A stretch of 64,000 nt of DNA from Chthoniobacterales bacterium. GTDB lineage: Bacteria > Verrucomicrobiota > Verrucomicrobiia > Chthoniobacterales > DASVRZ01. The notes beneath the pieces were generated by a model that saw only the letters and a list, made by a program, of their open reading frames with translations, was not told the origin of the DNA and searched no databases. The stretch spans positions 100,836 to 164,835 of the forward strand of contig JBBRNR010000003.1 of NCBI GenBank assembly GCA_038230215.1. The letters are read 5' to 3'. This document shows, piece after piece, positions 29,199-32,077 of this stretch. The number at the start of each line of letters is the position of its first letter. Position 1 is the first letter of the stretch. The translations under genes were made by a program, and so were the position numbers.

Positions 29199-29333
29199 TC
29201 ACGCCTTCGCGTAAAGCTCGGCTCCTTTTTCGGCGAACTCGGCGGATTTTTCGGCCATGCCTTTGGCTAACGCTTCTTCTTCGCTGATTTGTTGTTCGGC
29301 GGCATATTTGCGAACATCTTCGGTGATTTTCAT
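29199..29333 (-). pseudogene. Detached duplicate of the thiC 3' end (last 44 codons + stop)
   Basis: Encodes [44 protein letters not shown], versus the real ThiC C-terminus ...[44 protein letters not shown]. 118/135 nt identical to 30038..30172 by hand count. Confidence 0.85.
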
Positions 29334-29352
29334 GTCTTTAGGGGATTCGGAT

Positions 29353-29565
29353 TCACGCGTCATTCTTTGACAAACTCATTGAGTCGCCCTGATTGAGATG
29401 AATGAGAGGATGGCCGGAGAGTTTTTCGCGTTGGCTGGTTTCGTCAAAAAATTTATCCAGATCGTGGTCGTAAGCTGCCGACAAAGCGTCTTTGGCCCGC
29501 CACACTTCCTGGAGAACCAAGTCGCCGGTGGTTTTTAAGGGTTGCTGGTTAGTCGATGTGTTCAT
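29353..29565 (-). CDS. Small protein partner of the PIN-like gene (putative antitoxin)
   Basis: 70 aa, overlaps the PIN-like ORF by 17 nt on the same strand. Pairing typical of TA modules; family not recognised. Confidence 0.45.
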
Positions 29566-30034
29566 GGTCGTTCTCCATCAGTTCTTCTGGCGTGCAAATA
29601 ACAGGAAGGGTGATGCCAACACTTTCCGCCAGTTTGCGCAGCCGCGCTTGAATGGCTGCGTTGGCGATGTGCCGACAATTCCAACTCAAGAGAATATCCA
29701 TTTTGTAGGCACTGGCGAGGGCAATGTGCGCGGCGTCGCGTTCGGCTGTGGCAGGCAGTAGTCCCGAGACTAGGACTTTTTGGGTAAATTCCTTGATCTC
29801 TCCGGTCACTTGTAAAAGAGGAAATCCAGTCAGCAGTTCCAAGCGGAGTTGCGCCATGGCTTTCTCTCCGAAAGAAATTTCATCCAGCACGACTTGGGAG
29901 GCAAAAAGTTCGTGCTTGGCGCGTTGGAAATCCCACCAATCGCGGGTGAGTTGCTGGCGGGCAGCCTGCAGAAGATCGCGGGCTGGACGAGCCACGATGT
30001 AGCTGGGGATCGTGCTCTCGATGTAGATGCGCAT
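29549..30034 (-). CDS. PIN-like (VapC-family-like) domain protein
   Basis: MRIYIESTIPSY, VVLDEISFGE, ERDAAHIALASAYKMDILLSWNCRHIAN: acidic residues spaced as in PIN domains. ATG lies 3 nt after the thiC stop. Confidence 0.65.
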   Translation of the reverse strand: MRIYIESTIPSYIVARPARDLLQAARQQLTRDWWDFQRAKHELFASQVVLDEISFGEKAMAQLRLELLTGFPLLQVTGEIKEFTQKVLVSGLLPATAERDAAHIALASAYKMDILLSWNCRHIANAAIQARLRKLAESVGITLPVICTPEELMENDHEHID

Positions 30035-30037
30035 TGG

Positions 30038-32077
30038 TTATGCCTTCGCGTAAAGCTCGGAACCGGCTTCGGCGAACTCGGCGGATTTTTCCCGCATTCC
30101 TTTGGCGAGGGCTTCTTCTTCGCTGATTTGTTGTTCGGCGGCGTATTTGCGGACGTCTTCGGTGATTTTCATCGAGCAGAAGTGGGGGCCGCACATGGAG
30201 CAGAAGTGGGCGGTTTTGGCTCCTTCTTGAGGGAGGGTTTCGTCGTGGAATTCCCTCGCGGTGATGGGGTCGAGGCCGAGGTTGAATTGGTCTTCCCAAC
30301 GGAATTCGAATCTGGCTTTGCTGAGGGCGTTGTCGCGGTATTGTGCGCCGGGATGGCCTTTCGCGAGATCGGCGGCGTGGGCGGCGATTTTGTAGGTGAT
30401 GACGCCGTCTTTGACGTCTTTTTTGTTGGGCAATCCGAGGTGTTCCTTCGGGGTGACGTAGCAGAGCATGGCGCAGCCATACCAGCCGATCATGGCGGCG
30501 CCGATGCCGCTGGTGATGTGGTCGTAGCCGGGGGCGATGTCGGTGGTGAGGGGGCCGAGGGTGTAGAAGGGCGCTTCGTGGCACCATTCGAGTTGTTTGG
30601 CCATGTTTTCCTCGATCATGTGCATGGGGACGTGGCCGGGACCCTCGTTCATGACTTGCACGCCTTTGGCCCAGGCGCGTTCGGTGAGTTCGCCCTGGAC
30701 TTGGAGTTCGCCGAATTGCGCTTTGTCGTTGGCGTCGGCGATGGAGCCGGGGCGGAGGCCGTCGCCGATGGAGAAGGCGACGTCGTAGGCGGCGCAGATG
30801 TCGCAAATGTCGTCCCAATGGGTGTAGAGGAAGTTTTCCTGGTGATGCGAGAGGCACCATTTCGCCATGATGGACCCGCCGCGGGAGACGATGCCGGTCA
30901 TGCGGGAGGCGGTCCAGGGGATGAAACGCAGGAGGACGCCAGCGTGGATGGTGAAATAATCGACGCCTTGCTCGGCCTGCTCGATGAGGGTGTCGCGGAA
31001 GATTTCCCAGGTGAGTTCCTCGGCTTTGCCGTTCACTTTTTCGAGGGCTTGATAGATCGGGACGGTGCCGATGGGGACGGGGGAGTTGCGCAGGATCCAT
31101 TCGCGGGTGGCGTGGATGTTTTTGCCGGTGGAGAGGTCCATGACGGTGTCGGCGCCCCATTTGGTGGCCCAGCGCATTTTTTCCACTTCCTCTTCGATGG
31201 AGGACGCGACGGCGGAGTTGCCGATGTTGGCGTTGATTTTGACGAGGAAGTTGCGGCCAATAATCATAGGCTCGGACTCGGGGTGGTTAATGTTGTTCGG
31301 AATGATGGCGCGTCCGGCGGCGACTTCGGCGCGGACGAATTCGGGGGTGATCTCGGCGGGGATGCGTTGGGGGAATCTGTTGAAAATGGAGGGAGTGTAA
31401 GGGGAAGTTGAAGGCGAGTCGCCTTCAACGGCACGCGAGTCGCGTGCGCTCCCCGAAAGTTGGGCGCTGCCGATGTGTTGTTTTTGGAGGTCGGTGCGGT
31501 CATTGTCCTGGCCGAAATCAGAAATCTTAAATCCTAAATTAGAAATGCTTTTTTGGTTCTCGCGGATGGCGATGAATTCCATTTCCGGCGTGATGATGCC
31601 CGCTTTAGCGTAAGCGTATTGGGTGACGGTTTGGCCGGTTTTGGCACGGAGGGTTTTGCGTTTCAGACCGGGAAATTCGACGAGGCGATTGCGTTCGGCC
31701 TGGCTGGCAAACTCAGCGTGTTTGCCACTAAGATAACCGTCGTCCATCGGCTGCACGCTGCGTCCGCTGACGATTTCGACATCTCCACGGTCGAGAATCC
31801 ATTTCTCGCGAAGCGCTGGCAGTCCCTGGCTCGAATCGCAGGCGACATCGGGGTCGCCCCACGGGCCGCTGGTGTCATAGACGCGGACGGGTTCGTTTTC
31901 CAAGACGCGGCCGTTGAAGTCCTTGGTGGAAGCGAGGGAAATTTCGCGCATCGGCACGCTGACAGTCGGATGTAACTCGCCTGAAACGTAAACTTTGCGA
32001 CTGGCCGGCAGCACGTCGGAGCTGTGGGGAATGGGGGCGGCGGTTTCGGGGTTGGGAGCGGTGAGTTGGGAGTCCAT
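30038..32077 (-). CDS. thiC: Phosphomethylpyrimidine synthase ThiC
   Basis: [28 protein letters not shown]-terminal [11 protein letters not shown] cluster motif; 679 aa with an extra ~55-60 aa segment. Confidence 0.97.

Follow-up and report, generated by a model that had tools for sequence, protein, structure and literature searches.

How toxin–antitoxin (TA) and restriction–modification (RM) gene pairs move between chromosomes without a transposase or an integrase is a long-standing open question. It is raised again by a locus in the 64,000-nucleotide stretch of Chthoniobacterales DNA analysed here (contig JBBRNR010000003.1, positions 100,836 to 164,835; hereafter the window), in which a cassette of two small genes, predicted to encode a PIN-type toxin and its partner, has on each side a copy of the 3′ end of the thiamine-biosynthesis gene thiC, the two copies having diverged. 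How did the cassette enter this site, and why does the end of thiC stand on both of its sides? A prediction made from the sequence alone had read the locus as the capture of a circular DNA by a single crossover in thiC. We find that related cassettes lie at the ends of several housekeeping genes, a family-wide habit which that original prediction had missed. The sequences further indicate that the two copies are different thiC alleles, and the insertion was probably anchored by recombination within a conserved gene end. Contigs fetched for comparison are labelled L001–L172; copy I denotes the thiC tail attached to the intact gene and copy D the displaced tail. All genes and repeats of the window mentioned below lie on its minus strand.

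The duplicated thiC end

The intact thiC gene (30038..32077) encodes a phosphomethylpyrimidine synthase of 679 aa (ThiC_Rad_SAM, E 1.5e-184; ThiC-associated, E 1.3e-28). In pairwise alignment its last 44 codons and TAA stop (copy I, 30038..30172) recur as copy D (29199..29333), which consists of 44 codons and a TGA stop in a frame that is still open. Downstream of thiC follow a gene for a 161-aa PIN-like protein (29549..30034), whose ATG is 3 nt past the thiC stop, a gene for a 70-aa partner (29353..29565), which overlaps the PIN gene by 17 nt, and a 19-nt spacer (29334..29352) that forms the right junction between the partner stop and the displaced tail. As had been predicted, the map of open reading frames (ORFs) has only these two genes between the repeats.

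The reverse complements of 30038–30172 and 29199–29333 align without gaps and are identical at 118 of 135 positions. Twelve codons differ, nine synonymously (the TAA/TGA stop pair included) and three by replacement, at tail codons 27 (R in the attached copy, A in the displaced copy), 36 (A/K) and 38 (S/A); the alignment bears out the originally described repeat in every detail. The longest identical run, of 32 nt (repeat nt 31–62), lies at 30111..30142 and, in the partner copy, at 29272–29303. Homology starts on the left at the ATG of M636 (FCSM/KITED), just past the CX2CX4C motif, and ends on the right at the stop codon, with unrelated sequence on the flanks. An independent repeat search of the window returned 131 nt at 89% identity with a spacing of 839. 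Comparison of the tail with the whole window by blastn and tblastn returned two copies only (E 5.5e-42 and 4e-18), and the duplication is therefore not a chance likeness. The window was also searched for a third copy of the tail that would mark the distal boundary of a larger island, and none was found. The displaced tail also forms part of a 54-aa ORF (29199–29363), whose ATG overlaps the last codons of the partner gene and which, judging from the sequence, could be translated as a free ThiC-tail peptide.

By the Nei–Gojobori method, the two copies differ with pS 0.35, pN 0.06 and dN/dS 0.14, against a value of ~0.5 or more expected if one copy had drifted freely after duplication. Among 119 natural ThiC tails, 96 are nearer the displaced copy and two are nearer the attached copy. 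The attached tail is atypical, with R27 present in 0/119 homologues and A36 in 4/119; A27, K36 and A38 of the displaced tail are the usual residues at these positions (K36 in 108 tails, A38 in 80). The thiC gene of the closest relative found, L088, is equally far from both copies (111/135 each). The dN/dS of 0.14, the canonical residues of the displaced copy and the equal distance to L088 together indicate that the repeat copies are separate thiC alleles and not a gene end with its decayed duplicate, and that they diverged in different lineages before being joined. To judge from its codons and residues, the displaced copy was until recently in use as a working thiC end. When metagenome contigs were scanned for exact 32-mers of the tail, no close relatives of it came to light.

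Housekeeping-gene ends across the cassette family

No flanking repeat was present in the first four contexts of related cassettes (L001–L004), and the idea that the window is a one-off was overturned by a larger sample. This comprised 80 metagenome loci of the PIN family and ten loci from other look-ups. In each locus the 1 kb before the PIN ATG was compared with the 1.5 kb past the partner stop, a direct repeat being scored at E < 1e-8; random placements of a 680-bp test window in thiC loci served as the control. A direct repeat next to the cassette was detected in 13 of 55 testable loci and in 3 of 284 random placements (Fisher P 5.6e-9), and most of these repeats abut both ends of the cassette. 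Most of those examined are locus-specific and represent the last 36–235 nt of the co-oriented upstream gene, with 72–96% identity between the copies. The second copy begins 0–35 nt past the partner stop in most loci, and up to ~525 nt past it in L135.

A second tail copy accompanies an upstream thiC in the window, L121, L135/136, L141 and L170, an upstream thrS in L090 and an upstream PALP/threonine-synthase-like (thrC) gene in L095, L119 and L126, L097 having the downstream copy only. The same arrangement involves clpB in L108 and an upstream aldehyde dehydrogenase gene in L171. Some of these genes also precede cassettes without a detectable second copy (thiC in L111, L122 and L124; thrS in L092 and L098), and remnants of thiC are present at L120 and L172. 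Whichever the gene (thrS, thiC, thrC, clpB, aldehyde dehydrogenase or sufB), the gap from its stop to the PIN ATG is typically 2–30 nt.

Divergence of a coding type is seen in the repeats of other loci as well. The pooled pN/pS is 0.157 over seven repeat pairs, one of which flanks other cargo at thiC, and dN/dS is 0.02–0.21 in five of the six pairs besides that of the window; the synonymous sites of the remaining pair (L121) are saturated, so that no dN/dS can be given. These values, together with the dN/dS of the window pair and the commonness of the displaced residues among the 119 tails, agree with the original proposal that each copy had a history as a coding thiC end before the two were joined. 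Our search of the literature found no report that links a TA-like cassette family to homeologous duplicates of the ends of housekeeping genes, nor any description of TA cassettes at the ends of thrS, thiC or thrC.

Several cassettes carry marks of other sites. The last 35–45 nt of thrS (…ADILAAIRERRA and the stop), followed by an identical 9-nt spacer, stand directly before the PIN ATG of cassettes that are now elsewhere (L001, L002/3, L091, L104, L108, L109, L113 and L117). The PIN protein of the window groups with the thrS lineage (82–84% identity) and not with the other thiC-linked cassettes (65–69%), and the thiC junctions differ between cassettes, with gaps of 3, 9 and 27–110 nt and different leaders. 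It follows that thiC was entered more than once, or that cassette bodies were swapped between homes.

Further arrangements were observed within the family. In L108 (3496–4632), a C-terminal fragment of clpB is fused in frame to the thrS remnant, and behind it come the PIN gene, the partner gene and another clpB tail; as an intact clpB is missing upstream, the repeat-flanked unit as a whole seems to have changed its place since. In L171 (657–1170) and L170 (1561–1990), a further, orphan partner gene (57 aa) separates the partner of the cassette from the displaced tail. Cassettes are also found inside conserved gene clusters, namely sufB/sufC in L149 (1594–2330) and pyruvate:ferredoxin oxidoreductase genes in L004 (4806–5710). 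A non-coding repeated element flanks the cassette instead of a gene tail in L093 (3798–3859 / 4710–4771), L096, L125 and L129, where a TATAGT-like box precedes the ATG in a leader common to the cassettes; a promoter of their own is therefore not absent from all family members. A direct repeat of 749 nt (275–1023 / 2303–3051) with 99.9% identity flanks the cassette in L113 and may have arisen by a recent tandem duplication or be an intermediate of amplification.

Cargo at thiC in other genomes

The original view of the thiC 3′ end as a recurrent site of cargo is supported by several other genomes. L088 is a Chthoniobacterales metagenome-assembled genome (MAG) of another species, with 92% amino acid identity in ThiC and 87% nucleotide identity in thiC. 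It has thiC and the ArsR and AHSA1-type flanks in common with the window (ArsR/AHSA1 ~90% nucleotide identity), and the 4–4.7 kb between the flanks are unrelated. The thiC tail is present once in it and the PIN cassette is absent; instead, a GmrSD-type gene starts 22 nt past the thiC stop. The 32-mer of the identical run occurs in its thiC. The comparison with L088 is one between species with different cargo at the site.

A scan of species-representative genomes with the thiC tail gave 80 thiC loci among the matches listed, the source genome not being among them. In three of these (L012, L013 and L074), 3/80 being a lower-quality estimate, an intact thiC is followed by cargo and then by a second thiC 3′ fragment. 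L012 contains NOV_C/Sacsin-type and other genes and a thiC fragment of 165 codons (dN/dS 0.024, with synonymous sites near saturation); profiles of third-position GC content (GC3) did not distinguish the native copy in this locus. L013 contains a D12-class methyltransferase gene, a neighbour of 277 aa without a family match and a decayed thiC fragment of 239 codons, and its methyltransferase pair looks, from the sequence, like a candidate RM example at thiC. In L074, a Rhodocyclaceae MAG, a DUF433/HTH_66 and PIN_10 pair is accompanied by a decayed thiC fragment. The other cargo with this arrangement at thiC thus includes a candidate restriction–methylase pair, another PIN pair and genes of defence type. 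No recombinase was found among the ORFs scanned in the three loci. On the left, the displaced thiC fragments start near residue 636 in the window, 629 in L121, 650 in L135, 514 in L012 and 423 in L013. A scan of viral contigs returned a single thiC-tail match, a thiC 3′ end (974–1141) in the IMG/VR contig L089, about 1 kb from the contig end, which may mark a prophage boundary adjoining thiC.

Mechanism of insertion

Taken together, these observations make it probable that the cassette was inserted without an integrase, by recombination anchored in a conserved gene end that brought imported gene-end sequence with it. The inserted unit of 839 bp would consist of one thiC tail, the PIN-like gene and its partner, forming an addiction-type cassette with neither promoter nor integrase. 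The incoming DNA would bear its own version of the thiC end beside the cassette, and homologous exchange within the tail would join the two molecules, in the window most likely at or just past the 32-nt identical run; each tail copy would then probably be a mosaic of donor and host. thiC would stay intact, and a second complete tail would be left behind the cassette. In principle, the direct repeats could pop out the cassette as a circle with one tail, which would be a substrate for Campbell-type entry into genomes with a similar thiC end. The cassette would be transcribed by read-through from thiC, here under the control of a thiamine pyrophosphate (TPP) riboswitch, with translational coupling of its two genes, and would be kept because loss of a toxin/antitoxin pair is costly. 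We infer the recombination route, the circular intermediate, the toxin/antitoxin activity and the read-through expression.

Codon usage bears on the position of the exchange. The synonymous differences of the window pair, eight sites only, were scored for host genes against cassette and island genes. A reciprocal mosaic with a breakpoint past tail codon 22 scored 6.59, a wholly native attached copy 3.77 and a wholly native displaced copy −3.77. In tail codons 6–22 it is the attached copy that has a native look, the displaced copy appearing foreign (GTT 0.09 and TTA 0.04 in host genes), and in codons 25–44 the trend is reversed. Because the mosaic has the highest score, a reciprocal exchange inside the repeat is favoured. 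In L121 and L108 the copies resemble each other far more in the 5′ part of the repeat than in its 3′ part, at third positions too (pooled third-position P 0.011). The Campbell-type integration originally proposed is thus the best fit to codon usage, but the eight sites do not separate it cleanly from a joining that is homologous on one side and illegitimate on the other.

Such one-sided joining is known as homology-facilitated illegitimate recombination (HFIR). Here, a linear donor with a 3′ part of thiC and the cassette would cross over upstream in thiC and its far end would be joined without homology at codon 636, which predicts an attached tail that is wholly donor and a displaced tail that is wholly resident. 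The architecture does match the displaced 3′ ends and orphan immunity genes of type VI secretion system (T6SS) and rhs loci (PMC5361080); right junctions vary from 0 to 35 nt past the partner stop, orphan partner genes occur in L170 and L171, and the displaced copy is canonical at all three replacement sites. However, codons in the left third of the displaced copy are rare in host genes and those of the attached copy are the preferred ones (−3.77 against +6.59, from few sites), which disfavours HFIR. We consider it unlikely, and within integrase-free insertion the codons weakly favour a Campbell-type exchange. It appears improbable that the cassette has an active role as an autonomous mobile element of a new kind, in which the PIN nuclease with its partner, or some feature of the unit's sequence, would target the last codons or the stop-codon region of a few conserved genes and promote a break or strand exchange there, a form of ‘homing’ with a replacement tail. 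In favour of such a role are the recurrence of the same three genes (thrS, thiC and thrC) in different cassette sub-lineages, the position of all left junctions 2–30 nt past a stop codon and the lack of any known mobility gene. Insertion by an integrase at the thiC 3′ end, in the style of e14 and phage 21 at icd, with the integrase since lost or acting in trans, has the same outcome: the gene remains intact but ends in imported sequence, and a 3′ pseudogene is displaced (icd/icdC; PMC13626634). The abrupt start of homology, with a 17-nt identical stretch, and the tyrosine recombinase gene adjoining a distant member (46% identity) in L154 would also suit it. Host recombination is nevertheless preferred over a site-specific integrase, since no recombinase was found, edges vary at the same gene and each repeat pair is homeologous. 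The search for a recombinase was negative between the repeats, for the ORFs tested over the 4.7-kb interval and for the scanned ORFs of L012, L013 and L074; in the window, the ORFs tested at 24554–30034 (ArsR to thiC; Pfam, NCBIfam and PADLOC) gave none, with the 54-aa, ArsR and 149-aa ORFs each skipped in one or two libraries. From locus to locus, the left edges of displaced thiC fragments are up to 200 codons apart, leaving no fixed core, the unit measures only 839 bp, and no inverted repeats were found in 27000–33000. An integrase is thus very improbable.

It is hardly more credible, and if anything slightly less so, that a true long target duplication arose at insertion, through staggered breaks or replicative repair as has been proposed for RM genes, and that its copies diverged in place. 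Repeats of 46–423 bp are known for RM units without mobility genes (PMC2853133), and the repeats of L126 and L119 are 93–96% identical. Against this stand the dN/dS range of 0.02–0.21, with synonymous divergence up to saturation and intact frames and stop positions, the match of displaced copies to real ThiC lineage tails and not to a decayed attached copy, and the equal distance of both window copies from L088. An assembly artefact or strain chimera deserves a thought because the source is apparently a MAG, as are most of the relatives. We give it next to no weight: two copies that differ by 13% are too far apart to be a collapsed or mis-joined repeat, a chimera formed at the shared 32-mer would leave a single hybrid tail and not two tails around a cassette, and the same architecture is present in independent ENA, JGI and NCBI assemblies. 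Two other candidates were rejected. A diversity-generating retroelement does not fit, as there is no reverse transcriptase and the mismatches (C/T, C/G, A/C and G/A, in both directions) are not adenine-specific. An integron cassette does not fit either, with no (0) attC-like inverted repeats in 27000–33000 and no integron integrase found.

Several points weigh against integrase-free insertion as we describe it. About three quarters of the family loci have no detectable second tail, and the polarity of identity along the repeat is absent in L090, L126 and L012 under a fixed split. Neither a same-species empty site nor a donor allele was found, and donor and host bases are assigned from eight synonymous sites and three residues; L088 was rejected as an outgroup for polarizing the differences, both copies being equally distant from it. 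The breakpoint interval (codons 22–25) holds just eight identical bases. Moreover, the reuse of thrS, thiC and thrC and the position of left junctions, always within ~30 nt of a stop codon, are tighter than unaided recombination predicts, and selection for expression or an unknown targeting factor may be needed to account for them. As regards the addictive nature of the unit, its gene order is atypical (PIN first), the partner is without a recognizable DNA-binding domain, and the toxin and antitoxin functions are putative.

The cassette proteins and their expression

The 161-aa protein has no match in Pfam, NCBIfam or PADLOC. It has more than 1,900 metagenome homologues, some of them named VapC family toxin by NCBI, with identity to the window protein of 86% to 71% among the 120 best listed and down to ~46% among the fetched loci. 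In a Foldseek search of the PDB with an AlphaFold (AF2) model of the protein (pLDDT 79.6, pTM 0.71), the 15 best matches were all VapC/PIN toxins (prob 1.0, TM 0.43–0.65, E ~1e-3), and the top ones, all of them VapC toxins, had TM 0.53–0.65. Across 27 sequences of the family, E52, D100 and N119 are invariant and E6, D51, D98 and D113 are nearly so, the acidic ones being candidates for active-site residues. The model predicts a PIN fold, and the protein is a putative VapC-like toxin of the pair. The label of PIN-type two-gene cassette given by the original prediction therefore holds by AlphaFold and Foldseek, though the pair is atypical for VapBC.

An overlapping partner of 62–70 aa lies downstream in nearly all loci whose PIN protein is at least ~60% identical to that of the window. 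The 70-aa partner itself has no Pfam, NCBIfam or PDB match and is, from its position, presumed to be the antitoxin. The possibility that its unusual C-terminus marks an intragenic junction was rejected, as similar variants are present in L170, L171, L095 and L126; a subfamily trait is more likely. L154 (1626–2861) represents a distant subfamily (46% identity), in which no downstream partner was detected and the PIN gene starts 6 nt past the tyrosine recombinase gene.

The leader of thiC contains a TPP riboswitch aptamer (32137..32240), as originally predicted, which matches the full model (1–105) of Rfam RF00059 with 54.8 bits (gathering threshold 54.3). Upstream of it, a consensus scan alone gave a sigma-70-like promoter match, TTGACG-17-TATTCT (32244..32272), the sole such match on this strand ahead of thiC. 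From the riboswitch promoter to the end of the cassette, the minus strand has no promoter-like or terminator-like site except one weak match inside thiC; no such site lies between thiC and the cassette, in agreement with the prediction that the cassette has no room for a promoter of its own outside thiC sequence. A Shine–Dalgarno-like GAAGG is present within the thiC tail at −13..−9, 8 nt before the PIN ATG. Expression of the cassette by read-through from thiC, and hence in a thiamine-dependent manner, is plausible and fits the family-wide scarcity of upstream space.

Neighbouring genes of the window

The cassette lies in a variable interval of low GC content (25369..30037; GC 0.44–0.55 against ~0.60), which separates thiC from two conserved genes of the far flank. 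These encode an ArsR-family regulator (25013..25363; ~90% nucleotide identity to L088) and a 149-aa protein (24554..25003) that is 97% identical to the product of an AHSA1-domain (PF08327) gene of L088. Within the interval, the gene nearest the displaced tail (28754..29185) starts 13 nt past its TGA stop and comprises 81 aa, an in-frame TAA (28940–28942) and a further 61 aa with a GNHRFRA motif. This frame of 142 codons, split by the TAA into 81 and 61 aa, may be a pseudogene or contain a read-through site. It is followed by a 176-aa ORF (28214..28744). The original prediction had described an older ParB/HNH cassette here. The position of its first ORF, 13 nt past the displaced stop, was correct, but the labels are sub-threshold (ddrB-ParB, E 0.06, a weak ParB-like hint only; HNH_5, E 0.024, below the cut-off) and the ‘ParB’ gene has the in-frame stop. 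The 81-aa and 176-aa genes probably predate the PIN unit at the thiC site; their names are tentative.

A 231-aa protein of the island (25981–26676) matches the NCBIfam ‘PQLLE family’ (NF052641, E 1e-30). The only sequence common to the thiC–ArsR islands of the window and L088 is an 87-nt patch (27901–27987 in the window, where it is unique; 13939–14023 in L088) with 93% identity. In the thiC sense it has two predicted hairpins (MFE −43.9 kcal/mol, z −3.7); a terminator, a small RNA and the scar of a recombination event are possible readings of it.

Comparison with known systems

Insertion of RM units with long target duplication was reportedly described by Nobusato in 2000, and no mechanism for it is known to us. 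The window and its relatives form a natural series whose flanking repeats are two alleles of one conserved gene end, which suggests a simple route. On this route, a selfish cassette would use a piece of a conserved gene as a portable homology arm, leave the host gene intact and borrow its promoter, and pop-out may release the cassette again. If true, this would explain why the ends of thiC, thrS and thrC are hotspots of cargo, and why pseudofragments of gene ends and orphan partner genes gather there. It would also explain how expression of a cassette may become tied to host regulation, in this case to thiamine sensing.

The pair of the window resembles type II VapBC modules in its predicted PIN fold, which is nearest to solved VapC structures, in its overlapping two-gene organization and perhaps in the conserved acidic residues E6, E52, D100 and D113/N119. 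It differs in that the toxin-like gene is first, no antitoxin or DNA-binding domain is recognizable in the partner, space for an autoregulated promoter is lacking and neither Pfam nor NCBIfam provides a match. With integron cassettes it shares the design of small, promoter-less units stacked at one site and read from an upstream promoter, whereas neither an attC-like inverted repeat nor an integron integrase was found in the window by the searches run.

The closest parallel for the fate of the host gene is provided by e14 and phage 21 at icd of Escherichia coli, where the element brings an alternative 3′ end, the gene remains functional with mostly synonymous imported changes, the old end is displaced (icdC) and excision recombines the ends (PMC13626634). 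The window likewise has an intact gene with an apparently imported end and a displaced fragment. However, e14 is a 15-kb prophage with an integrase and a fixed site, whereas the unit of the window measures 839 bp, has no recombinase that we could find and belongs to a family with variable boundaries.

RM units inserted with long target duplication have repeats that are 93–100% identical and were read as duplications of the target (Furuta, Abe & Kobayashi 2010, PMC2853133), and it has been hypothesized that release through the repeats gives them a virus-like cycle. Both there and here, pairs that are addictive, in our case putatively, lack mobility genes and are flanked by direct repeats of local sequence tens to hundreds of bp long (135 bp in the window). 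In contrast, the repeats of the present family are homeologous alleles (87% identity in the window, 72–96% in the family, with dN/dS ~0.15), the pair is of the PIN type and insertion is at the final codons of a small number of conserved genes.

Displacement of C-termini in rhs-type loci was reportedly noted by Jackson in 2009. In rhs, contact-dependent inhibition (CDI) and T6SS effector–immunity loci it has been attributed to HFIR (Kirchberger 2017, PMC5361080). Common to these loci and the cassettes studied here are the conserved upstream anchor, the arrival of a new 3′ end together with a partner and the piling up of old ends or orphan partners (L170, L171 and L108). In those systems, it is the toxic and variable 3′ end that is exchanged, whereas in the present family a conserved housekeeping end would act as the homology arm and the putative toxin is encoded by a separate gene.

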